Source of the DNA: a virus
Taxonomy: Duplodnaviria; Heunggongvirae; Uroviricota; Caudoviricetes
Reading direction: 5' to 3' (one strand)
Length of the DNA stretch: 35,090 nt
Virus record (IMG/VR): IMGVR_UViG_2671180963_000003
Under the pieces are notes generated by a model that saw only the letters and a program-made list of their open reading frames with translations, did not search any database and had not been told where the DNA came from. Made by a program: the position numbers and the translations under genes. Shown here piece after piece: positions 1,038 to 35,090 of this stretch (position 1 is the stretch's first letter; every line of letters begins with the position of its first letter).

Positions 1038-2000
1038 TTAAGCTGCTTTGCGAACGTCGAACACATTTTCGAACGCATCAAAAACTTTAACTGTCATTAA
1101 ATCGATGAATTGAACGGAAGAACCATTTTTCTTAATCAGGTATTTGTTCCATTCTGCAACGTCTGCAACAGTACGCTTTTCGTTAAGCAGAATCCAAAGA
1201 GCTTGTTTGTCTTTAGATTCAACCGCTTGAGTAAAGAAGTCTTTAGATTCAACTTCCCGATCTGCTTCAACAGCAACCGGAGCAACTTCTTTAGCTTTCA
1301 GTTCTTCAATCTCAGCTTTCTGTGCTTCGATGATCTGGTCTTTTTCTTTCAGTGCAGCTTTCAGTTCTGCGATCTGTGCTTCCAGTGCAGAGAAACGATC
1401 TTCAACAGCAACCGGAGAAACAGCATTAACCTGTGCTTCCAGTTCTACGAAAGCGTCGCAAGATTCAATACGTGCTTTTTCTTCACCTTCATATGCAACC
1501 AGTTCTACTACTTCTTTCTCAGTAGCGTGGCTGTTAAAGAATACAGCAAAGTAAGGATTGCCGGATTTGGTGAAGTTCAGTTTAGCTTTTCCGGTAACTT
1601 CTTTACGACGACCAAAGGTAATGTTGCAATCAGCGGTATCCTGAAAATCCATGTTAGGAGCGGAAACGATAGCAGTATCACCAGCAATCACTAGGTGGAA
1701 CAGTTCAGAAGAGTTCTTAACGGTGAAAGTAACGATGTGGTCTACTGCAACGTCTTTAGCAGGTTTAACGCGGTCGATTGCTTTACGAATGCCGTTAGGC
1801 AGTTTACCGTCAACACCAAAGCCAGCCGCGATCAGTGCTTCACGATGTGCTTTAAAGCCAGCGAAAGCGGATTTCTGCTGCGCAAAGGAAACATGAGCAA
1901 CAACTTTCGGCTGAATCTTCTTGTTTGCTTCGGTGCCAAATTTGATAACTGCTTTAGCGTTGGTTACTTCGTTAGTGAAAAAGTTAGCGGAAAATAACAT
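1038..2000 (-). CDS. hypothetical protein with a central coiled-coil segment, function unknown
   Basis: 320 aa ORF, AGGAG Shine-Dalgarno upstream on the minus strand; N-terminal domain, central A/E/K-rich coiled coil (AQIAELKAALKEKDQIIEAQKAEIEELKAKE), C-terminal domain; no family recognised by eye. Confidence 0.55.
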   Translation of the reverse strand: MLFSANFFTNEVTNAKAVIKFGTEANKKIQPKVVAHVSFAQQKSAFAGFKAHREALIAAGFGVDGKLPNGIRKAIDRVKPAKDVAVDHIVTFTVKNSSELFHLVIAGDTAIVSAPNMDFQDTADCNITFGRRKEVTGKAKLNFTKSGNPYFAVFFNSHATEKEVVELVAYEGEEKARIESCDAFVELEAQVNAVSPVAVEDRFSALEAQIAELKAALKEKDQIIEAQKAEIEELKAKEVAPVAVEADREVESKDFFTQAVESKDKQALWILLNEKRTVADVAEWNKYLIKKNGSSVQFIDLMTVKVFDAFENVFDVRKAA

Positions 2001-2044
2001 TATAAATACTCCTGTGGAAAGTTAGTTTTAATTGTTCATTTCAA

Positions 2045-2082
2045 GCCTCCCTTGTTGCAGCAAAGGAGGCTTTTTCTTTTTT
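2045..2082 (+). terminator. hairpin followed by T-run (terminator-like, plus-strand polarity)
   Basis: GCCTCC...GGAGGC imperfect long hairpin followed by TTTTTCTTTTTT; it sits in the 5' leader region of the minus-strand 320 aa gene, so its role is ambiguous. Confidence 0.3.
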
Positions 2083-2114
2083 AAAGCCATCATATAATTC
2101 TCAGTGAAAGTGGA

Positions 2115-2294
2115 TTAACAAACTTGAACGTTAATCTTTACCTGAATTTCGTATTTCTTCATTAGCTTGTAGAATCCGCTTCTATCAATTCCTTCCTTCT
2201 TAAAGAAGTTTTCCCCGCCTCGCTCAGTGTCGCTGTAAAAGCGTTTAGCAATATCAACAATCATTTCACGAGTGAACTTAACAGGTCTAGCCAT
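2115..2294 (-). CDS. small HTH DNA-binding protein (paralog of 5690..5917)
   Basis: ATG at 2294 with GAGGA 9 nt upstream; the ORF track began at an upstream GTG. Motif RPVKF...DIAKRFY...GIDRSGFYKLMKKY aligns with the 76 aa protein RPARF...DIAYAYY...GISIAQFYKNMKKL. Confidence 0.5.
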   Translation of the reverse strand: MARPVKFTREMIVDIAKRFYSDTERGGENFFKKEGIDRSGFYKLMKKYEIQVKINVQVC

Positions 2295-2395
2295 CAGTCG
2301 ATTCCTCACATGTGGATTAATAATTTCTTAAAAAGAGCATTTCGCTCTGAACACTTGTATTTATAAAATGATTTTCAGAAAACCCTGTAAAACCA

Positions 2396-2411
2396 CTGTA
2401 TATCCGATCAG
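2396..2411. promoter_or_regulatory. LexA (SOS) box-like site CTGT-N8-TCAG
   Basis: CTGTATATCCGATCAG; matches the CTGT-N8-ACAG consensus with one mismatch; abuts a candidate leftward promoter. Confidence 0.35.
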
Positions 2412-2480
2412 TGGGAGCACGAATTGCTAAAGAGAAGATTAATTATTAATCAATTCGTACAATATTCAACCGAAAAAGCA

Positions 2481-2496
2481 CTGTATATCTAACCAG
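2481..2496. promoter_or_regulatory. LexA (SOS) box-like site CTGT-N8-CCAG
   Basis: CTGTATATCTAACCAG; the first 12 nt are nearly identical to the site at 2396. Confidence 0.35.
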
Positions 2497-2498
2497 TG

Positions 2499-2514
2499 CT
2501 GTATGAATTAGCAG
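2499..2514. promoter_or_regulatory. LexA box-like site CTGT-N8-GCAG
   Basis: CTGTATGAATTAGCAG, immediately adjacent to the previous site. Confidence 0.25.
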
Positions 2515-2635
2515 TGAATCAGGAGATTTTCAGAAGTGAACAATCATTTCACACATGTATTTATAACGTGGAAATTCTTGCTTATCATCTATATGGGGAC
2601 TGTTTAGAAAATTTCAACCCCCACCAGTGAGAAAA

Positions 2636-2664
2636 AGTATAAAATAATCCTTGACAGTTGTCAA
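2636..2664 (-). promoter_or_regulatory. sigma70-like leftward promoter (TTGACA-17-TATACT)
   Basis: On the minus strand, TTGACA (2664..2659), a 17 nt spacer, TATACT (2641..2636); the -35 is one half of the palindrome TTGACAgtTGTCAA (2651..2664). Confidence 0.5.
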
Positions 2665-2859
2665 TACACTTGACCCAAGCGAGAAATGACTATCAAAATT
2701 TTTGTTTGAAAATGGTAGATCAGGATTATCAACCTTTATAACCTATTATAGCACGGAGACCTTTTGACAATTCTTTTTAAATCATTAACTTACGCCACTT
2801 TTTGGTGATTTTTTGATTAAATAATATACAAGAATTTTCTATCAAAATATTTGATGGGA

Positions 2860-3056
2860 ATTGCCCCTGAAATTCTGAATTTTTGCCCCCGAATAAAATC
2901 CCCAAGATTCTACTATCCCATTTTTGCCCCTGAAACCTACTATTTTTGCCCCTGAAATTCTGGGAAACAGTGATTTTGCCCCTCATTTTTGCCCCTGAAA
3001 TGCCAATAATTGCCCCTGAAAATCTAATTTTTGCCCCTGAAATTTGCCCCCGAAAA
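2860..3056 (+). repeat. array of about 9 direct repeats of TTGCCCCTGAAA (variants TTGCCCCCGAA) plus one inverted copy near 3100
   Basis: Copies start near 2860, 2883, 2924, 2946, 2977 (truncated), 2988, 3010, 3031 and 3045; GGGGCAAAA in inverted orientation at about 3100; an AT-rich segment precedes the array at 2800-2858. Confidence 0.8.
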
Positions 3057-3459
3057 GGATTGGTGAGAAAAACTCTTTATAAAACATTAAATTAGTGAGG
3101 GGCAAAAGCGGGTGATGCGGCGTACATAGATATTATATAACACATTCGCTACGCTCATGTGTAAAACTAAAAACAACAAATAACCAGAAAGATATTAGGA
3201 GGGCTTTAGCCCGACTGCGCGAAGCGCCAACCAATTGCTTCTAGTAACAACTAATTTAAACTAGATGATACTAGATGGTCTTAGAAGGAATTAACTAGTT
3301 TGCTCGCTCGCTTCGCTCACTCTCAAACGTCTGCGACGCCACTGCGTGGCATCGAGAATCACTTCTGAAAGGATTTTCTCGAAAGGGATTTTAAACTAGT
3401 TACTAACTGATTCTAGAAAGATAGTAATAATCACTTTAATGATCATGAAAGGTATTGGT

Positions 3460-3488
3460 ATCCCTTCGGGATTGCAACCTTCGGTTGC
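3460..3488 (+). other. two tandem short hairpins with CTTCG loops (possible RNA structure or weak terminators)
   Basis: ATCCcttcgGGAT and GCAACcttcgGTTGC in tandem, followed by a T-rich tract. Confidence 0.3.
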
Positions 3489-3686
3489 TAAATTGCTTCC
3501 TGATTATTATTTCTCCAAAAGAAAGATTCTTATATTCTAAAGATACTTCTTCGTTTTGACGATGATTTAATCAAAAATCATGAAGGAGGCGAAGCCGACT
3601 GAATCCAATCACCTTTCATAATAACAAGAATTTTCTCTTTATAAATAATATTAGATTGATTCACTTTCTTTTTAGAGGATACCACT

Positions 3687-4127
3687 ATGATCAATACTAA
3701 AACTCCTTTCGTACTTCTGGGTCTGGACTCTGAAAACTACGGCAACTTCCATATGCTAGAAGTTTTCGCTAATCGTGGTTATAACATCATTCGTCATTCC
3801 GAAGACTCCAACTACTCAACTGCTTTCTACGCTTTAAAACGAAATGGTCGTCCTACTGTGATCATCGACTGTCTTACTGATGAAGGTCGTCTTCAATACA
3901 ACGATATTCCAGCAATTATTGTTCGTGATGACCTGCCGTTTGATGTTCGTGAATACGACGTTGATTTAGGCTCTTACTATGGGATCGCCGATCTTGACCA
4001 GATTATGGCTGATTACGGTAAAGAAACCGCTCAGGAAGCCCCGGAAGATGACGAAGACTACGCTCCAATCTGTTTCTCTTCTCAGAATGGCTTCTACGGT
4101 TACGATGAAGGCTTAGATATGCTGTAA
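3687..4127 (+). CDS. strongly acidic early protein, function unknown (possible DNA-mimic/anti-restriction candidate)
   Basis: 146 aa ORF, AGAGGA Shine-Dalgarno; about 27 Asp/Glu versus about 10 Lys/Arg; first rightward gene after the large control region. Confidence 0.55.
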   Translation: MINTKTPFVLLGLDSENYGNFHMLEVFANRGYNIIRHSEDSNYSTAFYALKRNGRPTVIIDCLTDEGRLQYNDIPAIIVRDDLPFDVREYDVDLGSYYGIADLDQIMADYGKETAQEAPEDDEDYAPICFSSQNGFYGYDEGLDML

Positions 4128-4668: not shown

Positions 4669-5496
4669 ATGAATACTGTTACCGTTATGAATACTGCTAA
4701 AACTGCTTCCGTGTCTCTGGTTGTTGATAACACCAAACCGCTGACCATGTCTTCTCGTCAGATCGCTGAATTTGTTGATAAGCGCCATGATAACGTTGTT
4801 CGCGATATTCGTAAGATGCTGAACGAGTTAGAAAAAGATGTCCTCAAATTTGAGGGCATCTATCTTGACCAATATGGACGCGAGAAAATCGAATATCACT
4901 TAGACGAAGAAATGACTCTGACTCTTGTCACTGGTTACGATGTTAAGCGTCGAATGATCGTTATTCAGGAATGGAAGCGACTGAAAGAAGAAAATGAAAA
5001 ACTGCGTTCTCAGCAAATCAACCCTTACGCAAACATGACTAAGCTCGACTGGATTCGTGAGGCAATGGAATTGGAAGCCGCAAACGAACAACTGATTCAA
5101 GAAAAGAAACAACTGGTTGAATTGCATGTTCGTAAAGCTATCGACACACACAGTCTTAGCCGCTTATTAGGCGAAAAACGAGGCTCTACGACGGTACAAA
5201 TGATTCTGAAAGGTTTATGTGCTGCTGGTGTTCTTGAGCGTCGTCTGGATGCTTCTGGTAAGCCTAAAGGCTATGATCTGCTTCCTCCTGGCTATATGTT
5301 CGCTCGTATGTCGGCACACGGTCAGATCGAGTTCACTGCTGATGCTATCCCGCATCTCGTAAAACTCGGATTGCTTGAAGAAGAAAAGGCCGCAACTTTG
5401 AAATTGCCACAGCCGAACAACTCACGAGCAATCATTAATAACACTGCTTTGCTGATTCGTCAGAATGCTGGCTCTCTGGAAGTCTTCGGACTGTAA
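4669..5496 (+). CDS. Rha-family phage regulatory protein (antirepressor-like)
   Basis: N-terminal motif LTMSSRQIAEFVDKRHDNVVRDIRKM resembles the Rha domain signature as recalled from memory; 275 aa; AAGGGG Shine-Dalgarno. Confidence 0.6.
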   Translation: MNTVTVMNTAKTASVSLVVDNTKPLTMSSRQIAEFVDKRHDNVVRDIRKMLNELEKDVLKFEGIYLDQYGREKIEYHLDEEMTLTLVTGYDVKRRMIVIQEWKRLKEENEKLRSQQINPYANMTKLDWIREAMELEAANEQLIQEKKQLVELHVRKAIDTHSLSRLLGEKRGSTTVQMILKGLCAAGVLERRLDASGKPKGYDLLPPGYMFARMSAHGQIEFTADAIPHLVKLGLLEEEKAATLKLPQPNNSRAIINNTALLIRQNAGSLEVFGL

Positions 5497-14495: not shown

Positions 14496-17400
14496 ATGCA
14501 GTCGATCCAATTTAAACGAACAAATGTTTCTGGCAAAAAACCAACGCCGGAACAATTACAGGTCGGTGAGGTAGCAATCAACCTTAAAGACCATGTTATT
14601 TTTACCAAAGACCGAGATCATGAAGTAGTTCAAATCTCTGTTTCTCCTGAAACTCACGCGGCACTAGAATCTAAAGTTGATGCTAACAAACAAGAACTGG
14701 ATAGTACAATTGCAGTAAATGACCGCAATATTCACGCTAAAGTAGATGAAATTAAACAAACTACTGATGCAACCATCGCAGCAAATCACGTAGAAATTAA
14801 CAATAAAGTTGATGTAATTAAACGCGAAACCGACGCGACAATCGATGCCAATAAAAATAAAGCTGCTTCCGACCTTGCTGGTGTTAAAGCTGAATTGTCG
14901 GATACTATCAACGCTAATAAAAATGCGGCTGCTGTAGCAACACAGGAACTGGACACCCGCATCAATAAAAAAGTTGATGATATTAAATCCCGTACCGATG
15001 CAACCATCGCAAGCAATGACAAAGCAATCAATGACAAGGTTGATTTGATTAAGGCCGAGACTGATCGGACTATCGCAGCAAATAAAGCCTATGCGGAAAA
15101 TCAGTTAACTGACACCTACAATAACCTTACTGGTGTGATTGCAGCCAATAAGCAAGAGGCAGCGGATAACGTCGCAGCATTAACCCGTGATGTTGAAGCC
15201 AAAAATTCAGCAATTCATAGCAAAGTTGACAATAACAAGTCTTACACCGATTCCGAACTTGCACGTTTAGAAAGCCGTATTGATGCAGCCGATGGATCTA
15301 GTGACGGTAAGTACATCAAAAAACACGTAAACACTTATACTGATGGTTATTTGCTGTCTAAGACCGCAAACTATTTTGATGATCCAGGTGCTCGTAATCT
15401 TGATTACTTTGGTGCATTCCGTACCAATGATCTAGCTGATCATATTGCAATGATCTTGCATGTTCCGCACCCATCCGGTGTTAATCATGCTCGTGGTTTT
15501 GAGTTCACTTATGGGTCTAATCCACATGCTACGGTAAGAACATACGGCTATGATGAATTGGGTCATTTGGCATATTCTCACCGCATGTATCATGAAGGTG
15601 ATAAACCTACTCCTGCCGAAATTGGCGCATATTCGAAAGCAGAAATTGACCGACTGTTCCAGAAGACGCTTAATTTTGGTATCGAGGGTGGTTGGTTTAA
15701 ACTAGGCACTTTGACAATGCCACAACAACACGGTCGCACCGCTAAGATTCGTTTGGTTGGTGGTAACGGTTATAACGTCGGACAGAATGGACAAGCCAAT
15801 GTTATTGAACTGGTGATCCGTTGCGGCAACAATAGCCCGAAAGGTGTTGTATTCAATGCTTATTATAGCATTTGGTATTACGAACAATATTTTTGCGCAA
15901 TTCCTACCGATGGCGATAATTACGATCTTTACGCTTACTACGGTGCACATACAGGATTTGTTTTAGCAGAATATCAAGTTTCGTCCGGTGGTGTTTCTTT
16001 AAACCTGTTGGATACTCCTGAATATCTGGGTGGTGAAAAACCTGTTGCAGATGAAATTTTTGATGCTCTTAACATTTCATCATTCAATAACTTTAGCAAC
16101 CGTGGAACGTTAAATTTTGGTGGAAACCATCAAGGCCAATATGACATTGAGCATTTGAACGAACAACAAACAAATGCTAAGAAAAAGTTGCGTCGCTTCC
16201 GTAGTTCCGCACCCGCTACTATCTGGCATGAAACTGTAGATGATCAGAATTATCGTCTTGCTACTGGATACGATGATGTAAACCAACAATTATTGCTGTC
16301 GGCTGCATCCGGTTTGCATATTCGTAGAATGACCATTGATGGCGGTTTAGGTGGAAACTCAGCAATTGATTTTCGTCGTGGTCCAAATGAATCATGTCAT
16401 TTAAACTTCTTTGATTATCGCACTGGTACAGATGTTCGTAATGGCTGGTTTGGCTTCGGTGATGGTCAGACCAAAGATTTTATTTGGTGGAACGACAACG
16501 GTCAAAACTCTATAAACCTGATTGAAGACGGTGAATTACATATTACTGGCGGTAGAGGCCAGAAAATTGTAATGAATAGCGAAGTGGCATTATCTGAAAA
16601 TGCTCGTTTGGCTGTCAAAGGTGGTAACTATGGTTTAATCCTTCGTAATGATGGTTCTAGCTTCCATATTCTTACTACCGATTTAAAAGATTCCTTTGGG
16701 ACGTGGAACACTCGTAGACCATTTAGTTATGATTTCGCCGAAGGTGGATTAGATCTAGGTGGCACAGCTACCGCACGCTGTTTACATCTGGGAATTGATG
16801 GTAGCACCCGCATCGAAGATAATATGGTGTTTAGATCAGGGTCTCGTCAGTCAATGGACTATATTGAATTAATCCATTGGGGTAACAGTAATACAGGACG
16901 CAATAACGTTTTGAGTATGCGAGATTCCAAAGGTTTCTTGGCTGAATTTGAACGCGTGGGGGGTACTAACGGCGTTAAAACCAGATTCTTTGGCGAAACA
17001 TTCACTGATGGTACATTATACCTAAATCAGATGAATAATAGCTCTGAACGATTCTCTATTAATAATTGGGGAAATTCAGAAGTTGGTCGCGCGGCAGTAA
17101 TGGAAGTTGGCGATTCCAAAGGTTATCACTTCTATACTGAACGTAGGACAGATGACACCGTTTTATTTGATGTATCTGGTGCTTTGACCGTGCATGGACC
17201 TAACGGAATAACCGTCAAAAACTCAACTGGTGCACGCCATATCTGGTTTAGAGATGATAGCGATACGGAAAAGGCTGTTATCTGGGCTACAGATGAGGGT
17301 ATTTTACATATTCGCAATAACCACGGTGGACAATTTACACATCACTTCCAGGGCGCGATGATTAAACTGGAAGGGCGTGTTCCTTATGCCGCAGATCAAG

Positions 17401-18020
17401 GACTTATCCGTGGTGAGGTTTCTGGTGGTGCATATGTTGCATGGAGAGACCGACCTGCTGGTTTGTTGGTTGACTGTCAACAAAGCGTTGATAGTGCTCA
17501 TGCTATTTGGAAAGCGGTTGATTGGGGGCGTAACTACATCGCTGCTATGGACGTTCATTGTCCCGGTGATAGTAATAATACTGCGGCAGCGGTTCTTCAT
17601 GTTCAGGGTGCTGATTATCAATTCCATGCAAGTGGAGAATTTCATGCCACTGGTAACGGAAACTTTAACGATGTTTATATTCGTTCCGATCGTCGTCTGA
17701 AAATTAATGTTGAAGATTACGAAGAAAATGCGGTGGATAAGGTAAATAAACTCAAAGTTAAAACCTACGATAAAGTTAAATCTCTTAATGACCGAGAAGT
17801 TATAGGTCATGAGATTGGTATTATCGCACAGGATTTACAAGAGGTATTACCGGAAGCTGTTAAAACCGCAAAAATTGGTGGTTTTGATAACCCAGAAGAA
17901 ATTTTAACAATTTCAAACTCCGCAGTGAACGCGCTTTTAATTAAAGCGGTCCAAGAAATGAGCGAAGAAAATAAACTTCTTCGTGAACGTCTTGCTGCAA
18001 TTGAAGCTAAATTAGGGTAA
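14496..18020 (+). CDS. tail fibre with C-terminal intramolecular chaperone (S74-like) domain
   Basis: 1174 aa. N-terminus MQSIQFKRTNVSGKKPTPEQLQVGEVAINLKDHVIFTKD resembles the T4 gp37-type fibre N-terminus from memory; repeated KVDxIKxxTDATIxAN units; WGNSEVGRAAVMEVGDSKGYHFYTERR resembles a T-even fibre domain; C-terminal DRRLKINVEDYEE...IAQDLQEVLPEAV...coiled coil resembles the self-cleaving chaperone of endosialidase/T5 pb1-type fibres. Confidence 0.8.
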   Translation: MQSIQFKRTNVSGKKPTPEQLQVGEVAINLKDHVIFTKDRDHEVVQISVSPETHAALESKVDANKQELDSTIAVNDRNIHAKVDEIKQTTDATIAANHVEINNKVDVIKRETDATIDANKNKAASDLAGVKAELSDTINANKNAAAVATQELDTRINKKVDDIKSRTDATIASNDKAINDKVDLIKAETDRTIAANKAYAENQLTDTYNNLTGVIAANKQEAADNVAALTRDVEAKNSAIHSKVDNNKSYTDSELARLESRIDAADGSSDGKYIKKHVNTYTDGYLLSKTANYFDDPGARNLDYFGAFRTNDLADHIAMILHVPHPSGVNHARGFEFTYGSNPHATVRTYGYDELGHLAYSHRMYHEGDKPTPAEIGAYSKAEIDRLFQKTLNFGIEGGWFKLGTLTMPQQHGRTAKIRLVGGNGYNVGQNGQANVIELVIRCGNNSPKGVVFNAYYSIWYYEQYFCAIPTDGDNYDLYAYYGAHTGFVLAEYQVSSGGVSLNLLDTPEYLGGEKPVADEIFDALNISSFNNFSNRGTLNFGGNHQGQYDIEHLNEQQTNAKKKLRRFRSSAPATIWHETVDDQNYRLATGYDDVNQQLLLSAASGLHIRRMTIDGGLGGNSAIDFRRGPNESCHLNFFDYRTGTDVRNGWFGFGDGQTKDFIWWNDNGQNSINLIEDGELHITGGRGQKIVMNSEVALSENARLAVKGGNYGLILRNDGSSFHILTTDLKDSFGTWNTRRPFSYDFAEGGLDLGGTATARCLHLGIDGSTRIEDNMVFRSGSRQSMDYIELIHWGNSNTGRNNVLSMRDSKGFLAEFERVGGTNGVKTRFFGETFTDGTLYLNQMNNSSERFSINNWGNSEVGRAAVMEVGDSKGYHFYTERRTDDTVLFDVSGALTVHGPNGITVKNSTGARHIWFRDDSDTEKAVIWATDEGILHIRNNHGGQFTHHFQGAMIKLEGRVPYAADQGLIRGEVSGGAYVAWRDRPAGLLVDCQQSVDSAHAIWKAVDWGRNYIAAMDVHCPGDSNNTAAAVLHVQGADYQFHASGEFHATGNGNFNDVYIRSDRRLKINVEDYEENAVDKVNKLKVKTYDKVKSLNDREVIGHEIGIIAQDLQEVLPEAVKTAKIGGFDNPEEILTISNSAVNALLIKAVQEMSEENKLLRERLAAIEAKLG
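14676..15080 (+). repeat. imperfect tandem ~66-69 bp repeats within the fibre gene
   Basis: At least four consecutive units encoding (H/N/K/D)KVD(E/V/D/L)IK(Q/R/S/A)(T/E)TD(A/R)TI(A/D)(A/S)N; a coding repeat, not a separate element. Confidence 0.6.
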
Positions 18021-18058
18021 TTGGAAAGCGGGGAGAAATCTCCGCTAAGGATTCTTAT

Positions 18059-18355
18059 ATGGGATATTGGGTAAGTAGTGAAATTAATACTAAAATCGAT
18101 GCTTTAAAATGGCATGTATTTGATATTCCTAACGGCTATGGTACTGCTCGTGCTGGTGTCGCTGTAATGCGTCATAATGCTGGTGGTGGGTGGTCTGATG
18201 CACATATTAACGTAGATGGTTTGACCGTTGCTCGTCGTCGTGGTGGGACCAATTGGGGATCTACTATAAATTCGTTTGTTCCTGCTGGCTGCACCGTCTC
18301 CTTTGGTTTAGGGGGTGAAGGTGGTGTTGAATATTTTAAATTCATGGAGTTTTAA
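18059..18355 (+). CDS. Gly-rich small protein, paralog 1 of 3 (FDIPNGW family), function unknown
   Basis: 98 aa; AAGGA Shine-Dalgarno; shares FDIPNG(Y/W), a G-rich core and a C-terminal TVSF..G....YFKF with the next two ORFs. Confidence 0.5.
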   Translation: MGYWVSSEINTKIDALKWHVFDIPNGYGTARAGVAVMRHNAGGGWSDAHINVDGLTVARRRGGTNWGSTINSFVPAGCTVSFGLGGEGGVEYFKFMEF

Positions 18356-18357
18356 TT

Positions 18358-18663
18358 ATGGCTGGATGGATAAATCAAAGAATGTCAAACGCTATTAGTA
18401 TTTGGGCTAATGGTGGATATTTTGATATCCCCAACGGCTGGGTTACTGATTCATGCGGAATTGTTTTTGCTCATATGGAAGCCATTAACGGTGCTGGTGA
18501 TCTTGATTCTGAATTGGCTGTAAATGGATTGATTGAATCAGGTCATCATGCTGGTGATGCTGGGAGTTGGGGCGCTAGTTCTTTAGTTGGCGCTGGTGCT
18601 ACCGTTAGCTTTACATTGGGTAAAGGTAGTTTGCATTATTTTAAATTCAGGAGAATGCACTAA
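18358..18663 (+). CDS. Gly-rich small protein, paralog 2 of 3 (FDIPNGW family)
   Basis: 101 aa; GGAG Shine-Dalgarno; starts 3 nt after paralog 1 ends. Confidence 0.5.
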   Translation: MAGWINQRMSNAISIWANGGYFDIPNGWVTDSCGIVFAHMEAINGAGDLDSELAVNGLIESGHHAGDAGSWGASSLVGAGATVSFTLGKGSLHYFKFRRMH

Positions 18664-18965
18664 TGGCATTTTGGGTAGATGGCGCTTTGGGGAATAGGGC
18701 GGGTAAAGCAAATCAAGGATGGTTTGATATTCCTAACGGTTGGACAGCCGACGCTTTCGGGACTATTTCATTCTGTGCTCATTCTTCCGGTGGTGGCGGT
18801 GGTGACTCTGAATTGCTTATTCATGGTTTGTGTGTTTCTGGAAGCCATAAGGGTCATGATTGGGGACAGATTCATTCTTGTATTGCACCGCAAGGGGCGG
18901 TAATTACCGTTAGCACAAATAGGGGGATCGCTCATCTTCGTTATAGACGTTTGAGCAACCGCTAA
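18663..18965 (+). CDS. Gly-rich small protein, paralog 3 of 3 (FDIPNGW family)
   Basis: 100 aa; AGGAGA Shine-Dalgarno; start overlaps the stop of paralog 2 by 1 nt. Confidence 0.5.
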   Translation: MAFWVDGALGNRAGKANQGWFDIPNGWTADAFGTISFCAHSSGGGGGDSELLIHGLCVSGSHKGHDWGQIHSCIAPQGAVITVSTNRGIAHLRYRRLSNR

Positions 18966-19019
18966 ATAAATAGAATTACGGGTATGTGCCCTATTGTTTA
19001 AAATAGAAGGAAAAGAATA

Positions 19020-28304: not shown

Positions 28305-28583
28305 ATGACTGAAATTATATATGGCGGTATCGGTGTTATCGCCTTAATTTGCGGTGGATTATGGAGACTTCACCGAAATCAATTAGCAACTGAAAATAGA
28401 TTGTCGAAATTGGAATCCAGCGACGCATTGTTAAACCAGAAGTTTGAGACGATGCAGAATAACCATACTCAGATTGCTGAACGTGTTTACCAAATGGAAC
28501 AAACACTACACGGTATAGAGAAGAAAGTGGTTGCGATGGACGCTAAGTTTGACCAAGTTCTCGACATACTCAAACAAAAATAA
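28305..28583 (+). CDS. membrane-anchored coiled-coil protein (spanin-, holin- or exclusion-like candidate)
   Basis: 92 aa; N-terminal hydrophobic helix IIYGGIGVIALICGGLW followed by a heptad-like region; CGGGGG Shine-Dalgarno. Confidence 0.45.
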   Translation: MTEIIYGGIGVIALICGGLWRLHRNQLATENRLSKLESSDALLNQKFETMQNNHTQIAERVYQMEQTLHGIEKKVVAMDAKFDQVLDILKQK

Positions 28584-28603
28584 TAATAAAAGGGGTGAAT
28601 ATA

Positions 28604-28773
28604 TGAAGAATAAACTTAAGAAATATTTTGGTTATCTCTTGATTGTCGCCCTCACTTATAACGTAGCTATTAGACCTCTGCTAACGTCCTTTGGGCTTGA
28701 ACTCCCGGCTATGACCGTGGATGAACAATTGCTAAGGACACTGGCGGGGGTCTTTTCGTTATTAGGGGGCTAA
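28604..28773 (+). CDS. small membrane protein (holin-like candidate)
   Basis: Start moved to ATG 28604 (AAAGGGGTGA Shine-Dalgarno); 56 aa with two hydrophobic stretches. Confidence 0.4.
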
Positions 28774-29496: not shown

Positions 29497-29844
29497 ATGG
29501 CTAAAAATATTTTCACTGAATTTCCTACTTATCCGGTCGATCAGCTTTCCGGTATTTTTATTAATGGCATTAGCCCAGAATCTATGACACATGATTTTGA
29601 GGCGAAGAGAGTTAAACATAAACAATATAAAGAATGTATCCGCGATCATGAAAAAGGGACCGTGTTTTGTGTCGCTACATTGGCTAAACGTCCTAAGTAT
29701 CGTTTTCGTGTCGGACAAGAAGTTGATGTGGTTAATCCTTATAGCTTTAACTGTCTGGGCGATGCACGCGCGGTGTGTGTAGGCACTGCTCCTTATTATA
29801 TCAAGGGTATGCGCTTTATTGGTTATATCTTCGAAATGATCTAA
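29497..29844 (+). CDS. hypothetical protein
   Basis: 115 aa ORF with TGGGGG Shine-Dalgarno. Confidence 0.5.
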   Translation: MAKNIFTEFPTYPVDQLSGIFINGISPESMTHDFEAKRVKHKQYKECIRDHEKGTVFCVATLAKRPKYRFRVGQEVDVVNPYSFNCLGDARAVCVGTAPYYIKGMRFIGYIFEMI

Positions 29845-29853
29845 GGGGGTAAT

Positions 29854-30207
29854 ATGTTAAGTAAGCATTTTTCTCGCAAGGAATTTAAATGTAAATGCGG
29901 AAAATGTGATTATGATACAATCGACGCTGAATTACTGGTGATTCTTGAGGATGTACGAGAGCACTTCGGTAAACCAGTGATTATTAACAGTGGCAACCGT
30001 TGCCCGACTCATAACAAGAATGTTGGCGGTGCAACCAATAGCTATCATGTTCGAGGCCGTGCGGCTGACATTGTTATCAAGGGTGTCTCGCCTGATATTG
30101 TTCATGCTTATCTTGATGGGAAATATCCTACTCAATACGGCTTAGGAAAATATAAAACCTTTACGCATATTGATTCCAGATCAAAAAAATCACGGTGGAA
30201 TGGATAA
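29854..30207 (+). CDS. endolysin, Peptidase_M15-type zinc peptidase (D-Ala-D-Ala carboxypeptidase-like fold)
   Basis: 117 aa; motifs SGNRCPTHNKNVGGATNSYHVRGRAADI and FTHID match the His/Asp zinc-binding pattern of this family; AAGGGGGTAA Shine-Dalgarno. Confidence 0.7.
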   Translation: MLSKHFSRKEFKCKCGKCDYDTIDAELLVILEDVREHFGKPVIINSGNRCPTHNKNVGGATNSYHVRGRAADIVIKGVSPDIVHAYLDGKYPTQYGLGKYKTFTHIDSRSKKSRWNG

Positions 30208-31748: not shown

Positions 31749-33428
31749 TTAAATTCCAAATTCCTGTAATGGACCTGGTATTTCCTCTTCTGGTTTCCAG
31801 TTCTTATCTGTCAGCATGTCTAAACATGGATGCAGAACAAGCCCGTTGCTCTCCAGAATCTGCCTATCATTGATAGTTTTCAAATCAATGAATATCCGGC
31901 CTTTCCTCGTTCCTCTTGAATTTTCTATTACAACTCTCTGGGTCTTTCCATCGATGTATTCCAGTACAAACAAGTTTTTGTTTCTGTCAATCCTGCTACA
32001 CCCGATCCGCTTTAGAGCTTGCTTAATCTTAAACCGGACCTTTAGTCGTTCCTCGTTATAAACATCTTCTAAATCAAATTCTGCGAGCTTCTCCCAGCCT
32101 TGAGAGTCCACAGAATACATTTCCTCTTCTGCCATCTTGATCTGATTGTAGAGTGTTTCACGCTCGCTATTGAGGGTAGTAATCTGATCGGCTAGCTCCT
32201 TCGTTGCTCCTGTCATAGCAGAAAGGGCAATCAGGTTATCAATCTTGCGTGATATTTCATCAACCTGTACTTTCAAAGCCGGAACCGGATTAGCCTTGTC
32301 CTCAGCAATCCAGATTTTATCAGCCAGCAATTGCAATACAGCTTTCTCTAATTGATCACCTCGAAAACTCCAGTTTGGATGCTCGCAATCAAGTCTACGT
32401 GAACGGGTCGCATCACATGTATAACGATACTGGTCAGAACGTTTGTTCGTTCCCTTCACTTTAACCATAGCGCAACCGCAATGATCACATTTCAATAGGC
32501 CAATACCACTAAGCAGGGGGATCGGTTTAACTTCTTCCTTCTCTCCAAAGTTCCATGCTCTAGCACCAATATTTTTCTTAAGGTGATAGAACGTAGCATC
32601 ATCAATAACACGAGGGTAATAATCCTTTAACTCATAGTTAACGCCATCTACAGAGACTTCCTTGATACCAATCAAAGCGCGGGTATGGAACAACCTTTCA
32701 ACCATTGCCCGTGACCATTTTGAATGCTTCTTGTTGCTTACTGCTGGTGGCGGTGTATATGTCTCGTTAAGGTGATCCAGTATTTCGGCGGTTGAACGTC
32801 CATTCTTCCGTAATTCCACAATCTCCTGAACAACAGGGAAGTACACCGGATGAGGCAACACATAACCGGAAGTGGTATCAGTCCACCACATATTCTTTCC
32901 AACTTCCTCGATAGCCACTGCCGGATTTTGTGGATTTTCTTGATGAGCTTTAATCTTAATCAATGCGCTTGAGTTAGTACGATTGCGCTTAGTCTGGCTT
33001 TCCTCATTACCACGGATGAATAAAAGGATGGAGAACATCAGGTCCATCGGGTTAGCGGTAACAGTATCCAGCGAGTAGATCTTGTTATCCATGCCAGTAA
33101 CAATGGTTATTCCCCTACGGATGATTGAAAGGAATAACTCCTGCGCACTGACAATATCGGCACGGGATAAGCGGTCCAAGTTTTCAATGAATAGCCAGCT
33201 ACCAACAGGAACGGATCTACCAATTGCATCAAGGAAACGAGATAGCGCCCCTGTTTTAGAGTTAGCACCCTTAAACGCAGATACACCCAGATCCTGATAA
33301 TCATTTACCAGTTCAAGGTCATACTTTGTCGCAACCTCTCTCGCCATCCTGATTTGTCGTTCATAACTCGAACCATCATTCTGACGCATAGACGAGAAGC
33401 GAATATACGAATACAGTTTAGTTTTCAT
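31749..33428 (-). CDS. large serine recombinase (integrase-like)
   Basis: N-terminal YSYIRFSSMRQ...ERQ and DRLSR resemble the serine recombinase catalytic motifs; Cys cluster CDHCGCAM...C..C; C-terminal coiled coil; 559 aa from ATG 33428 (the track began at an upstream TTG). Confidence 0.8.
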   Translation of the reverse strand: MKTKLYSYIRFSSMRQNDGSSYERQIRMAREVATKYDLELVNDYQDLGVSAFKGANSKTGALSRFLDAIGRSVPVGSWLFIENLDRLSRADIVSAQELFLSIIRRGITIVTGMDNKIYSLDTVTANPMDLMFSILLFIRGNEESQTKRNRTNSSALIKIKAHQENPQNPAVAIEEVGKNMWWTDTTSGYVLPHPVYFPVVQEIVELRKNGRSTAEILDHLNETYTPPPAVSNKKHSKWSRAMVERLFHTRALIGIKEVSVDGVNYELKDYYPRVIDDATFYHLKKNIGARAWNFGEKEEVKPIPLLSGIGLLKCDHCGCAMVKVKGTNKRSDQYRYTCDATRSRRLDCEHPNWSFRGDQLEKAVLQLLADKIWIAEDKANPVPALKVQVDEISRKIDNLIALSAMTGATKELADQITTLNSERETLYNQIKMAEEEMYSVDSQGWEKLAEFDLEDVYNEERLKVRFKIKQALKRIGCSRIDRNKNLFVLEYIDGKTQRVVIENSRGTRKGRIFIDLKTINDRQILESNGLVLHPCLDMLTDKNWKPEEEIPGPLQEFGI

Positions 33429-33440
33429 ACCATTTCCAAA

Positions 33441-33477
33441 CAAAAACGCCCCTACCGCGTATTATAACGATAGGGGC
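33441..33477 (-). terminator. rho-independent terminator (minus strand) upstream of the recombinase
   Basis: GCCCCTA(c)CG ... CG(a)TAGGGGC hairpin with a U-run on the minus strand; the loop contains TTATAAT. Confidence 0.5.
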
Positions 33478-33493
33478 ATTGGTTAGTAAGTCA

Positions 33494-33739
33494 TTAATAT
33501 TTCTTTCCAGTTAGTTTTGCATCACGTTTATTAATATCCTCGATATGACTCCATACACACGCAGTAATAAAGTCGTCATCGTCACCAACTCCGGCAACCT
33601 GTGCTAATTCAGTACACAGTTGATTTAAAGAAGGTGCAACGGCAGCACGCTTGACACTATCACCCTGTACATATTGTTCGGCATTTGCAGCACCAACCAA
33701 ACCCAGAGCAAGAACGATACCAGCGATAATCTTTTTCAT
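33494..33739 (-). CDS. small secreted protein with Sec signal peptide
   Basis: 81 aa; MKKIIAGIVLALGLVGAANA with an AXA cleavage motif; AGAGGA Shine-Dalgarno; acidic DDDD patch. Confidence 0.5.
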   Translation of the reverse strand: MKKIIAGIVLALGLVGAANAEQYVQGDSVKRAAVAPSLNQLCTELAQVAGVGDDDDFITACVWSHIEDINKRDAKLTGKKY

Positions 33740-33768
33740 AATAGAATCCTCTTTGTTATTTGAATTAA

Positions 33769-34110
33769 TTAGTCTTTGAAGTCGATGGTCACGTTACCTT
33801 TAAGGGCAAGTTCCATTAAACAACTGCGCTCGTCCTTCATGCTCTTACACAATTTCATCCCGTAAACAACGAGATTATCTTTCTCTTTCCAATATTTTTG
33901 TTTATCTGCATAAACCTCGCTATATTCACTGTCTTTGAGTGAGAGAGCATTTTCTAACTGGCTAATCTCCTGATTCAGATCCTTAATCTCGGCCTTATTT
34001 GACCGGATAGTCTCTTGATGTTGAGTATCGGAATAGTCATACCCACAAACAAATCCACCGATGCCACCAACACACACAGAAACAATAATTGCGTAGATAG
34101 TCTTTTTCAT
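33769..34110 (-). CDS. membrane-anchored or lipoprotein-like coiled-coil protein
   Basis: 113 aa; N-terminal hydrophobic segment with Cys residues, then a heptad-like region; its 5' context (AAAGAGGATTCAATTATGAAAAAG) is nearly identical to that of the upstream gene. Confidence 0.5.
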   Translation of the reverse strand: MKKTIYAIIVSVCVGGIGGFVCGYDYSDTQHQETIRSNKAEIKDLNQEISQLENALSLKDSEYSEVYADKQKYWKEKDNLVVYGMKLCKSMKDERSCLMELALKGNVTIDFKD

Positions 34111-34151
34111 AATTGAATCCTCTTTGAATGAATTACGATATATTTATATCG

Positions 34152-34277
34152 TTAAAAATTGATGCTAATTACCAGACCAAACACAACCGCACCAATCAAA
34201 TCAATCCAGTTAATACACAATCCGCTATATTCTTTCTTGAATGTCTTGGATGAAATGCCATCATGAAATTGTTTCAT
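34152..34277 (-). CDS. hydrophobic micro-protein (41 aa)
   Basis: MKQFHDGISSKTFKKEYSGLCINWIDLIGAVVFGLVISINF; GGGGTGA Shine-Dalgarno; absent from the ORF track because of its size. Confidence 0.3.
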   Translation of the reverse strand: MKQFHDGISSKTFKKEYSGLCINWIDLIGAVVFGLVISINF

Positions 34278-34280
34278 TGC

Positions 34281-34361
34281 TCACCCCATACTAACGACAA
34301 TATAAGAAAGACTAATCATAGTTGTGAGACTACCTCCCACGAATGAGATAAAAGCTAACAT
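34281..34361 (-). CDS. hydrophobic micro-peptide (26 aa)
   Basis: MLAFISFVGGSLTTMISLSYIVVSMG; GGAGAA Shine-Dalgarno 6 nt upstream; lies directly after a minus-strand terminator. Confidence 0.25.
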   Translation of the reverse strand: MLAFISFVGGSLTTMISLSYIVVSMG

Positions 34362-34378: not shown

Positions 34379-34404
34379 AAAAAGCGGTGGGAATTACACC
34401 CACC
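34379..34404 (-). terminator. rho-independent terminator (minus strand)
   Basis: GGTGGG-tgtaatt-CCCACC followed on the minus strand by GCTTTTT. Confidence 0.45.
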
Positions 34405-34418
34405 AAATTAGAAATTAA

Positions 34419-34805
34419 TTAAGCACGAACGATGGTCAGAGTATCCAGCAAACCTTTTTCGTATAATTCGAAACACGTTTTATATTGCTCAATCTGGAAA
34501 CCATAGCGGGTGATCTTATTCAGTAGGACAATCGCGCTATTCTCATCTAGGTATTGTCCTTGCTGTCCAATGACATAAGTCTCGCGGGATAGTTTCAGCT
34601 TACGGAAACCTTTAACACCTAATTCCTTAGCCACCGCTTTAATCTCTTTAATCTCACCCTCAGCCGCAACATATTCAGCGTCGATAATCTCAGGTGATGA
34701 TCTCAGTGCTACCAGAACTAAGGCCATTGCTTCTTCTTCTGTACGCGCAACACCAGCTTTCTCGAAAGTCATCTCACCAAATTTACGAATCATGATATTG
34801 AACAT
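34419..34805 (-). CDS. hypothetical protein
   Basis: 128 aa ORF in the minus-strand block; weak Shine-Dalgarno. Confidence 0.45.
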   Translation of the reverse strand: MFNIMIRKFGEMTFEKAGVARTEEEAMALVLVALRSSPEIIDAEYVAAEGEIKEIKAVAKELGVKGFRKLKLSRETYVIGQQGQYLDENSAIVLLNKITRYGFQIEQYKTCFELYEKGLLDTLTIVRA

Positions 34806-34817
34806 TGTTTTGCTGCC

Positions 34818-35090
34818 TTACTTCTTGCTGATAAACTCTTTAGCGATAAAGTTGATTACTTCTTTCAGCTTCTTGTCTGTATCGATGCACGCCGGTAATT
34901 CTTCTTTAATCTCCTGCGGCAGATACACATTGCCTTTAAAGTGGAGGAAACCATCATTACCAATCATGTAGGAGAACATCCATTCACAATCGTTATCCGC
35001 TTCCCAGAACGCTACGGTCTCATCGCCAATCAAGGTAATGTCCATGTTGCGACGTGCTGCGTAGTTGATGATTGCTTTGCCGATGTTCAT
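34818..35090 (-). CDS. hypothetical protein (5' end at the window edge, possibly partial)
   Basis: ORF runs to the last base of the window; the ATG at 35090..35088 may be the true start or an internal Met. Confidence 0.4.
   Translation of the reverse strand: MNIGKAIINYAARRNMDITLIGDETVAFWEADNDCEWMFSYMIGNDGFLHFKGNVYLPQEIKEELPACIDTDKKLKEVINFIAKEFISKK

Follow-up and report, generated by a model that had tools for sequence, protein, structure and literature searches.

The genes described here lie at one end of a 35,090-nucleotide stretch of virus DNA (Caudoviricetes; IMG/VR record IMGVR_UViG_2671180963_000003), to the whole of which we refer as the window. From the sequence, it is clear that the minus strand at this end carries, in its own reading direction, the genes for a 90-amino-acid (90-aa) and a 128-aa protein, a hairpin, two very short open reading frames (ORFs) named ORF26 and ORF41, an AT-rich hairpin, the genes for a 113-aa and an 81-aa protein, a terminator, and the gene (int) for a large serine recombinase, the integrase (Table 1). 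The four ORFs in the middle of this array (81, 113, 41 and 26 aa), which an original prediction made from the letters alone had singled out as a block of two exported proteins and two hydrophobic micro-ORFs, were confirmed together with their coordinates. That prediction missed the main point: what is conserved in the block is its micro-ORF core, and the larger genes are cargo that can be swapped. Prophage ends beside the integrase gene and the host junction are typical sites for accessory genes. The block makes up such a region, close to the integrase, in a temperate siphophage of Escherichia coli that is as yet uncharacterised.

Table 1. Positions of the block, its signals and the neighbouring genes in the window.
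Feature	Position	Strand	Remarks
ORF26, 26 aa	34281..34361	-	Single-pass membrane peptide (predicted), no charged residues
ORF41, 41 aa	34152..34277	-	Tail-anchored membrane protein (predicted)
AT-rich hairpin ACGATAT-AAAT-ATATCGT	34135..34152	-	-5.7 kcal/mol, z = -2.97; left slot border
5′ context, copy 1	34102..34125	-	Ribosome-binding site GAGG + ATGAAAAAG, of the 113-aa gene
371-bp cassette	33756..34126	-	113-aa gene plus one repeat copy (ribosome-binding site/start context)
113-aa cargo gene	33769..34110	-	Membrane anchor and long periplasmic helix (predicted)
5′ context, copy 2	33731..33754	-	Within the constant leader of the slot, 81-aa gene
81-aa cargo gene	33494..33739	-	Sec signal peptide, periplasmic helical hairpin (predicted)
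Strong intrinsic terminator	33445..33480	-	-23.7 kcal/mol, z = -4.7; between 81-aa gene and integrase; right slot border
Intrinsic-terminator-like hairpin and T-run	34385..34405	-	-11.4 kcal/mol, z = -2.75; just upstream of ORF26
Large serine recombinase (integrase), 559 aa from ATG	31749..33428	-	Resolvase, Recombinase and Zn_ribbon_recom domains
128-aa gene	34419..34805	-	phrog_14908, unknown function; weak Rho_N/SAP-like motif
90-aa gene	34818..35090	-	phrog_6147, unknown function; its ATG is the window end
M15 endolysin	29854-30207	+	About 3.5 kb from the 113-aa gene

The block was compared with about 60 related E. coli prophage loci taken from isolate genomes, IMG/VR, Logan and metagenomes. 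The order of the locus is constant in all of them, variable upstream genes being followed by ORF26, ORF41, a slot, the terminator and int. ORF41 and int are present in all loci analysed, and an ORF26 homologue lies 5′ of ORF41 in every one, that of L023/L024 being a divergent 25-aa version; micro-ORF homologues with 50–65% amino-acid identity are still kept at the same position. Since the micro-ORF pair occurs in all loci while the slot contents vary, the pair is the conserved part of the block, and the 113-aa and 81-aa genes are optional cargo. Across the loci compared, the ORF26/ORF41 pair is thus its conserved core, standing upstream of the large serine integrase in every relative.

Both micro-ORFs are preceded by a Shine-Dalgarno (SD) sequence, as had been predicted; read from the sequence, these are GGAG, 8 nt 5′ of the ATG, for ORF26 and GGGGTGA, 3 nt 5′ of the ATG, for ORF41. 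The stop codon of ORF26 falls within the SD of ORF41, with 3 nt between this stop and the ORF41 start, and ATGA stop/start overlaps of the micro-ORFs with flanking genes are seen in three relatives (L018, L019 and L022). The description of both peptides as almost entirely hydrophobic fits ORF26, which is hydrophobic throughout (grand average of hydropathy, GRAVY, 1.64), but only the C-terminal half of ORF41: its residues 21–41 form a transmembrane segment with a GRAVY of 1.89, whereas residues 1–20 have a GRAVY of -0.93 and contain six charged residues.

The substitution pattern in these two frames is that of coding sequence. Among 16 close loci, 13 of the 17 variable sites in both ORFs are synonymous (four of six among close relatives for ORF26 alone), and the lengths hardly move, ORF26 having always 26 codons across 13 nucleotide alleles and ORF41 40 or 41 codons across 20. 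When distant loci are included, the synonymous sites are saturated, the proportion of synonymous differences (pS) being 0.84–0.88 versus 0.33–0.41 for non-synonymous ones (pN); for the most divergent ORF26 pair, pS = 0.88 and pN = 0.41. The first 15 residues of ORF41 (MKQFHDGISSKTFKK) are unchanged in homologues down to 63% overall identity, and its C-terminal transmembrane segment is variable between homologues. Between the window and L018, ORF41 codons 1–15 show five synonymous and no non-synonymous changes, and since these codons change only synonymously, the constraint is on the peptide and not on the DNA or an overlapping frame. Dual coding was considered as a cause of the invariant N terminus and rejected, because the ORF in the overlapping +1 frame is altered wherever ORF41 changes synonymously. 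Judged by these patterns, ORF26 and ORF41 are genuine genes under purifying selection, in agreement with their proposed status as real membrane-peptide genes. They had also been called unannotated; this is correct for the RefSeq record examined, where neither appears, but ORF41 is called a hypothetical protein in a few GenBank records.

The near-identical 5′ contexts noticed in the original prediction are equally real. The window contains just two copies of the 24-mer AAAGAGGATTC[A/T]ATTATGAAAAAG, one at the start of the 81-aa gene and one at that of the 113-aa gene, and 100 shuffles gave no match to it, even at three mismatches; both genes have the SD GAGG, read from the sequence, 8 nt 5′ of their ATG. 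It lies at the core of a longer direct repeat of 63 nt, whose copies have 75% identity and a spacing of 371 bp. When the slot genes of the relatives are aligned, those for the 81-, 77-, 132- and 139-aa proteins have in common the ribosome-binding region and the signal peptide MKKIIAG[IV]VLALGLVGAANA, and the 60 nt of leader DNA are 80–93% identical among them. Immediately past the cleavage site, identity in the 77-, 132- and 139-aa genes, whose mature domains are unrelated to that of the 81-aa protein, is 21–31%, the random level, and it returns at the terminator before int. The 113-aa gene has in common with this leader only the ribosome-binding site and the first codons. From these alignments, the shared 5′ contexts proved to be the constant ribosome-binding site plus export leader of the slot.

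The 371-bp cassette that holds the 113-aa gene behaves in relatives as a precise present/absent unit, an indel between the repeats, and it is missing from most of them. Two types of junction were found in loci that lack the 113-aa gene. In the first (L008, L012) the crossover lies in TAATTCA; in the second (L011/L041) it lies within the stretch from the ribosome-binding site to ATGAAAAAGA, so that a 113-type upstream region is joined to the 81-aa coding sequence. That there are two junction types indicates that the repeat recombined independently at least twice. On the basis of the repeat-flanked indel and these two junctions, we infer that the leader homology enables gain, loss and exchange of cargo by recombination.

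A similar stretch of DNA was also met outside this prophage family. Positions 33707–33757 of the window, covering the ribosome-binding site of the 81-aa gene and the first signal-peptide codons, are 88% identical over 51 nt to positions 158651–158701 of phage RB49 (NC_005066.1; L003 1501–1551). The RB49 side is the start of p262, which encodes a 252-aa secreted protein with a lysozyme-inhibitor LprI domain; similar genes are found in about 47 T-even-type phages.

Between ORF41 and int, the slot holds zero to two genes for exported proteins. Its borders are the AT-rich hairpin after ORF41 on the left and the terminator before int on the right, and the contents seen are the 81-aa gene alone, the 113-aa and 81-aa genes together, a 106-aa homologue of the 113-aa protein alone, a 77-aa protein, proteins of 132–139 aa, a 130-aa lipoprotein, or nothing; the 77-aa and 132–139-aa products are secreted. 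In the empty-slot loci (L018 and L019–L021), a 75-aa secreted or a 62-aa protein is encoded between ORF26 and ORF41 instead, with ATGA overlaps. The 75-aa secreted protein of L018 was considered as an 81-aa homologue and rejected, as the two do not align. When the alternative cargo proteins were scanned against PHROGs and Pfam, the sole match was that of the L019/L020 106-aa lipoprotein to a generic family of phage lipoproteins. Domains of a single periplasmic family (about 30% identity, with N- and C-terminal Cys brackets) occur behind three different export signals, that is, a Sec signal in a 139-aa protein (L025/L059), a lipoprotein signal LAGC in a 130-aa protein (L058/L062) and a 113-type anchor in a 153-aa protein (P0034). 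Since the same domain is found behind three leaders, leaders and mature domains shuffle independently. The comparison of loci shows that the slot holds interchangeable genes for exported proteins.

In the window phage, the two occupants differ in how they would reach the envelope. The 81-aa protein starts with a Sec (signal peptidase I) signal, MKK-IIAGIVLALGLVG-AANA/EQ, with cleavage predicted at ANA/EQ, and the elements MKK, IIAGIVLALGLVG and A-N-A are kept in 16 homologues (assessed by motif), which bears out the signal peptide of the original prediction. The mature part of about 61 aa contains conserved cysteines C42 and C61; its AlphaFold2 model has helices at residues 27–49 and 55–77, with a predicted local distance difference test score (pLDDT) of 67 and a low-confidence N terminus. 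For the 113-aa protein, the same prediction had proposed a membrane or lipoprotein-type N terminus, of which the membrane anchor stands and the lipoprotein does not: a Val precedes both Cys residues, so that there is no lipobox, and the homologues P0031 and P0032 have no Cys there. With the lipobox rules violated and no Cys in these distant homologues, the N terminus is a signal-anchor. The predicted topology is N-in/C-out with a transmembrane segment at about residues 5–23, and the AlphaFold2 model (pLDDT 69.5, low-confidence N terminus) has a helix at residues 28–89 and a short C-terminal helix, at which a conserved C88-x8-C97 pair (CX8C) is located. On these predictions both products are envelope-targeted, the 81-aa protein being Sec-exported and the 113-aa protein membrane-anchored with a periplasmic coiled coil.

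Both larger protein families are very small, as far as the searches reach. An exhaustive hidden Markov model search of 1.84 billion representatives, a library without organism names, gave four clusters of 113-aa homologues, and all source-named word-index matches to both proteins are from E. coli. The 113-aa gene is present in only 8 of the 58 block-carrying E. coli genomes and absent from about 50. The ratio of non-synonymous to synonymous substitution (dN/dS) is about 0.17 for the 81-aa gene and about 0.42 for the 113-aa gene. Both AlphaFold2 models consist of simple helices of medium confidence, and Foldseek of these models against BFVD and the PDB, together with a PDB-sequence profile search, was uninformative; for the 81-aa model (pLDDT 67), Foldseek returned nothing at E below 1 from either collection.

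In addition to the genes, we have also checked the block for signals. The micro-ORFs had been described as sitting just past a terminator, and a hairpin with a T-run (34405–34385) does lie just upstream of ORF26. It is the 5′ edge of the module kept in close relatives, and homology with loci that have different upstream genes starts here; divergent relatives lack it, and in them ORF26 overlaps the upstream gene. The AT-rich hairpin shows a compensatory double change in L022 (CGTTAT..ATAACG) and is not found in loci with an empty slot, which points to an RNA or DNA structure with a role at the border of the slot. The terminator before int carries a perfect TATAAT in its loop and is kept where the integrase is only about 75% identical; it is also found at positions 5140–5175 of L018 and in L019, L022, L023 and L025. 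This TATAAT may at the same time serve int as the -10 element of a promoter. The plus strand of the block showed no terminator, its sole promoter-like site (34061–34089) lies within the 113-aa gene, and an Rfam scan of the region for known RNA families gave no match.

The phage attachment site (attP) could be reconstructed for relatives, from L065 6340–6420 with L001 7366–7440 and from L066 9200–9290 with L002 6876–6960; in the window phage it would lie beyond position 35090. It spans about 52 bp, carries the inverted arms TTATTGGGG and CCCCACAATAA, stands directly upstream of the first gene of the operon, and is abutted by a terminator on its far side. In the hicB-type phage, a promoter-like TTTACA-18 nt-TATAAT spans the attP crossover, and integration would therefore split this promoter-like site; in the ycdX-type attP the spacing of such a split promoter is poor. 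We regard the split promoter at attP as a lead from sequence.

The 90-aa gene is the first of the integrase-proximal operon in the window phage, and 89–90-aa homologues lie at the prophage/host junction in relatives; the presence of the 128-aa gene differs between relatives. Of 5426 complete E. coli genomes, 58 carry the window DNA in their chromosome as a prophage, and in the two of these 58 that were inspected the block lies at the extreme prophage end, beside the host junction in hicB or ycdX. The insertion sites of the prophage family in relatives are ycdX, hicB, or a position beside a DUF1722 (ybgA-like)/photolyase pair. The integrases of L048 and L049 are both 96.4% identical to that of the window, with the same pattern of amino-acid differences, and these two prophages occupy different host sites (the DUF1722 (ybgA-like)/photolyase pair versus ycdX); the integrase of the hicB-inserted phage differs from that of the window mainly in residues 200–400. 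Many carrier strains are enterotoxigenic E. coli (ETEC) or animal isolates. In the phage collection searched, there was no sequenced phage close to the window phage and none with the block, ORF41 or a close integrase, the best integrase match being about 32% identical, and GTDB representative genomes gave no match beyond one 512-bp contig. This contig (JANCAF010000145.1, from an Actinacidiphila cocklensis assembly) has 99% protein identity to integrase residues 168–337, and its presence in an actinomycete assembly is almost certainly contamination.

The remaining window is of siphovirus type, with a terminase, a portal, a major head protein, a tape measure, a T4 gp37-like tail fibre and an M15 peptidase endolysin. 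The T4 gp37-like distal long tail fibre, here in a temperate siphovirus-like prophage (14496–18020 and about 15360–18980), has DNA 77–92% identical to that of T-even and Krischvirus phages, a sign that temperate and virulent coliphages have exchanged DNA recently. Away from the block, possible lysis genes are found at 28305–28773 and 29497–30207. Besides the M15 endolysin, their products are a 92-aa protein that combines a transmembrane segment with a coiled coil, a 56-aa protein in which two segments are hydrophobic, and a functionally uncharacterised 115-aa protein. The window as a whole showed no recognisable spanin pair and no tRNA, and about 1.7 kb (2000–3687) has no ORF of at least 70 aa on either strand.

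Taken together, the above observations are best explained by a conserved micro-ORF core and a recombining cargo slot, with envelope-level phage exclusion as the most likely role, a reading that we hold with moderate confidence. ORF26 and ORF41 form a constant, closely coupled pair of membrane proteins upstream of the integrase, and the slot behind them is occupied by exchangeable exported proteins, here a membrane-anchored coiled coil of 113 aa and a helical hairpin of 81 aa, which would be gained, lost or exchanged by recombination in the constant leader. As all products would act at the envelope and the cargo is polymorphic, an envelope change that excludes other phages is the most likely outcome: the block products would alter the envelope of the infected or lysogenic cell and so keep other phages out (broad superinfection exclusion). 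The small membrane pair would then be either the constant part of exclusion or have a separate core function. For the structure and evolution of the locus the support is good; envelope-level phage exclusion is our best guess, drawn from location, export and polymorphism.

Several observations weigh against this reading. The low dN/dS of the 81-aa gene implies fairly strong purifying rather than arms-race diversifying selection, the diversity of the slot being a matter of cassette replacement. Scans of all four proteins against Pfam, PHROGs, NCBIfam and PADLOC gave nothing above noise, except for generic transmembrane-plus-coiled-coil matches of the 113-aa protein (spanin, RmuC, FtsL), and no fold or defence-system match was obtained for any of them. 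The linkage of the micro-ORFs with int could be plain shared ancestry, the loci representing one narrow lineage. A promoter scan of the block found two weak sites, none convincing, versus 5.5 expected by chance, and with attP directly upstream of the operon in relatives, integration may sever the operon from its promoter, which would imply a role in early infection and not expression in the lysogen.

The closest documented mechanism for the behaviour of the cassettes is the modular shuffling of PeSL cassettes in the hyperplastic regions of phages of the RB49/phi1 (T4-type) group (Arbiol et al. 2010, PMC2839356), and recombination at conserved regulatory cassettes has been documented for T4-type phages in that work. 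In both cases short conserved expression signals flank small non-essential ORFan genes and give the homology for insertion, deletion or replacement between closely related phages, and the leader of the present slot is 88% identical over 51 nt to an RB49 gene start. A PeSL unit, however, consists of an early promoter and a stem-loop terminator, whereas the repeated unit here consists of a ribosome-binding site with start codons or a signal peptide, and the setting is a temperate phage beside int. Since the repeated unit reaches into the signal peptide, exchange takes place inside the coding region with the export signal kept. Two traits of moron or hyperplastic-region cassettes are seen here: presence/absence polymorphism between otherwise near-identical phage genomes, and flanking conserved expression signals that serve as recombination sites (the repeats, the junctions and the common leader). 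A constant N-terminal leader with variable C-terminal domains is also known from bacteriocin leaders, CdiA-CT and similar systems. These resemble the slot in joining a constant export module to unrelated domains, with cassette replacement at a fixed junction, but differ from it in that the mature parts here have about 55–120 residues, carry no toxin or immunity signatures and are encoded in a prophage integrase operon.

As for function, small exclusion proteins of the envelope would be the closest analogues, for example those of T4 (Imm, Sp) or Cor. Envelope-acting exclusion proteins include HK97 gp15, T4 Imm and Sp, and phi80/N15 Cor, and T4 pairs the small inner-membrane Imm with the small periplasmic Sp (reviewed in PMC11436027). 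Like these, the block encodes small membrane and periplasmic products of accessory genes that are variably present among related phages; unlike them, its proteins show no sequence or fold similarity to known members, and they are without the lipobox that Cor and Llp have. The Cor/Llp-like candidate of the original prediction, which would inactivate the phage receptor (FhuA), was dropped as a family assignment for these reasons: both Cor and Llp are outer-membrane lipoproteins, no Cys is found around the cleavage site of the 81-aa protein, neither larger protein has a lipobox, and PHROGs, Pfam, NCBIfam and PADLOC gave no match. A likeness of the 81-aa protein to T4 Spackle (Sp) was not supported either, no similarity in fold or sequence being found by Foldseek of its medium-confidence model or by the PDB-sequence profile search.

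Among the alternatives, the one that survives best is that the cargo genes are host-fitness or virulence morons (cf. lambda Bor/Lom), whose products change the surface to the benefit of the lysogen in the gut instead of blocking phages. Position and export signals fit this equally, many of the carriers are, as noted, ETEC or animal isolates, and no PADLOC defence model matched above noise. We consider it unlikely, since the proteins bear no likeness to known adhesin, serum-resistance or virulence families, are very small and mostly simple helical hairpins, and no promoter for lysogenic expression was identified in the block.

Less likely again is that ORF26 and ORF41 are membrane-anchored regulators by which lysogeny is established or reversed, with expression from the circular genome alongside the integrase and with the cargo as unrelated passengers. 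The strict linkage of the pair to int in every locus would be expected in this case; the invariant cytoplasmic 15-residue N terminus of ORF41 suggests a conserved intracellular partner, and attP is directly upstream of the operon in relatives, with the promoter-like hexamers of the hicB type across the crossover. The linkage may, however, be mere common descent, two terminators stand between the operon start and int, and in the ycdX-type attP the split-promoter spacing is poor. The known recombination directionality factors of serine integrases, moreover, are soluble proteins, which speaks against membrane-bound ones.

A bolder form of the core-and-slot reading, for which the chances appear slimmer still, holds that the constant ORF26/ORF41 core works with any slot occupant, making up a modular envelope system whose specificity is swapped by leader-anchored recombination and which is wired to the serine-integrase operon, possibly through a promoter switch that spans attP. 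If true, it would represent a new type of cassette-diversified prophage exclusion or sensing system built from micro-proteins.

The original prediction had also listed type I toxin-like membrane peptides. Once derepressed, such peptides would kill the cell or bring it to arrest, as a means of abortive infection or of addiction. TisB, ShoB and Ibs are type I toxins or very small membrane proteins of E. coli. The single-pass hydrophobic peptides of 20–40 residues in this group resemble ORF26, a small hydrophobic membrane peptide by its GRAVY and devoid of charge, and the C-terminal segment of ORF41. The micro-ORFs differ from them in being embedded, in place of an independent and translationally repressed toxin transcript, in an operon with good SD sites, tight multi-gene translational coupling and, in relatives, ATGA overlaps; ORF41 has in addition its conserved hydrophilic cytoplasmic head. 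No antisense promoter/terminator pair or Rfam antitoxin RNA was detected in the region, no toxin family matched in Pfam, NCBIfam or PADLOC, and the two are always paired beside int, all of which makes a toxin improbable.

More remote is the spanin-like lysis role that the original prediction also named, in which the 113-aa protein would be i-spanin-like and the 81-aa protein its partner in the periplasm. The 113-aa protein has the N-terminal transmembrane anchor, periplasmic coiled coil and conserved Cys of an Rz-type i-spanin and a weak match to phrog_739 (Rz-like spanin, E = 0.0024), and no recognisable spanin is located beside the endolysin. This generic shape is, however, typical of any transmembrane-plus-coiled-coil protein, as the equally weak RmuC and FtsL matches illustrate. 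There is no o-spanin partner, since no plausible lipobox ORF is found on either strand of the window or embedded in the 113-aa gene, and the 81-aa protein has an AxA signal-peptidase I site in place of a lipobox Cys. The 113-aa gene is also dispensable in most relatives, and it lies outside the lysis cassette, on the opposite strand to the endolysin and 3.5 kb from it, beside int. The idea of the micro-ORFs as frames that happen to be open within a regulatory spacer without coding function, as their shortness, their absence from the RefSeq record and the lack of family matches might suggest, is effectively refuted by the substitution pattern, that is, by frame and length kept in all alleles, the synonymous excess, and homologues retained despite saturated synonymous sites.

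The present analysis adds two evolutionarily validated micro-protein genes, of 26 and 41 aa, that were uncalled in the RefSeq annotation examined. It also provides a natural example, in a temperate coliphage, of a coding-region leader (ribosome-binding site plus signal peptide) as the joint for swapping exported-protein genes. Should the cargo proteins prove to stop phages from entering, the slot would provide a compact source of new anti-phage proteins, very small and acting at the envelope, and further ones could be sought simply by using its constant leader as a sequence tag.

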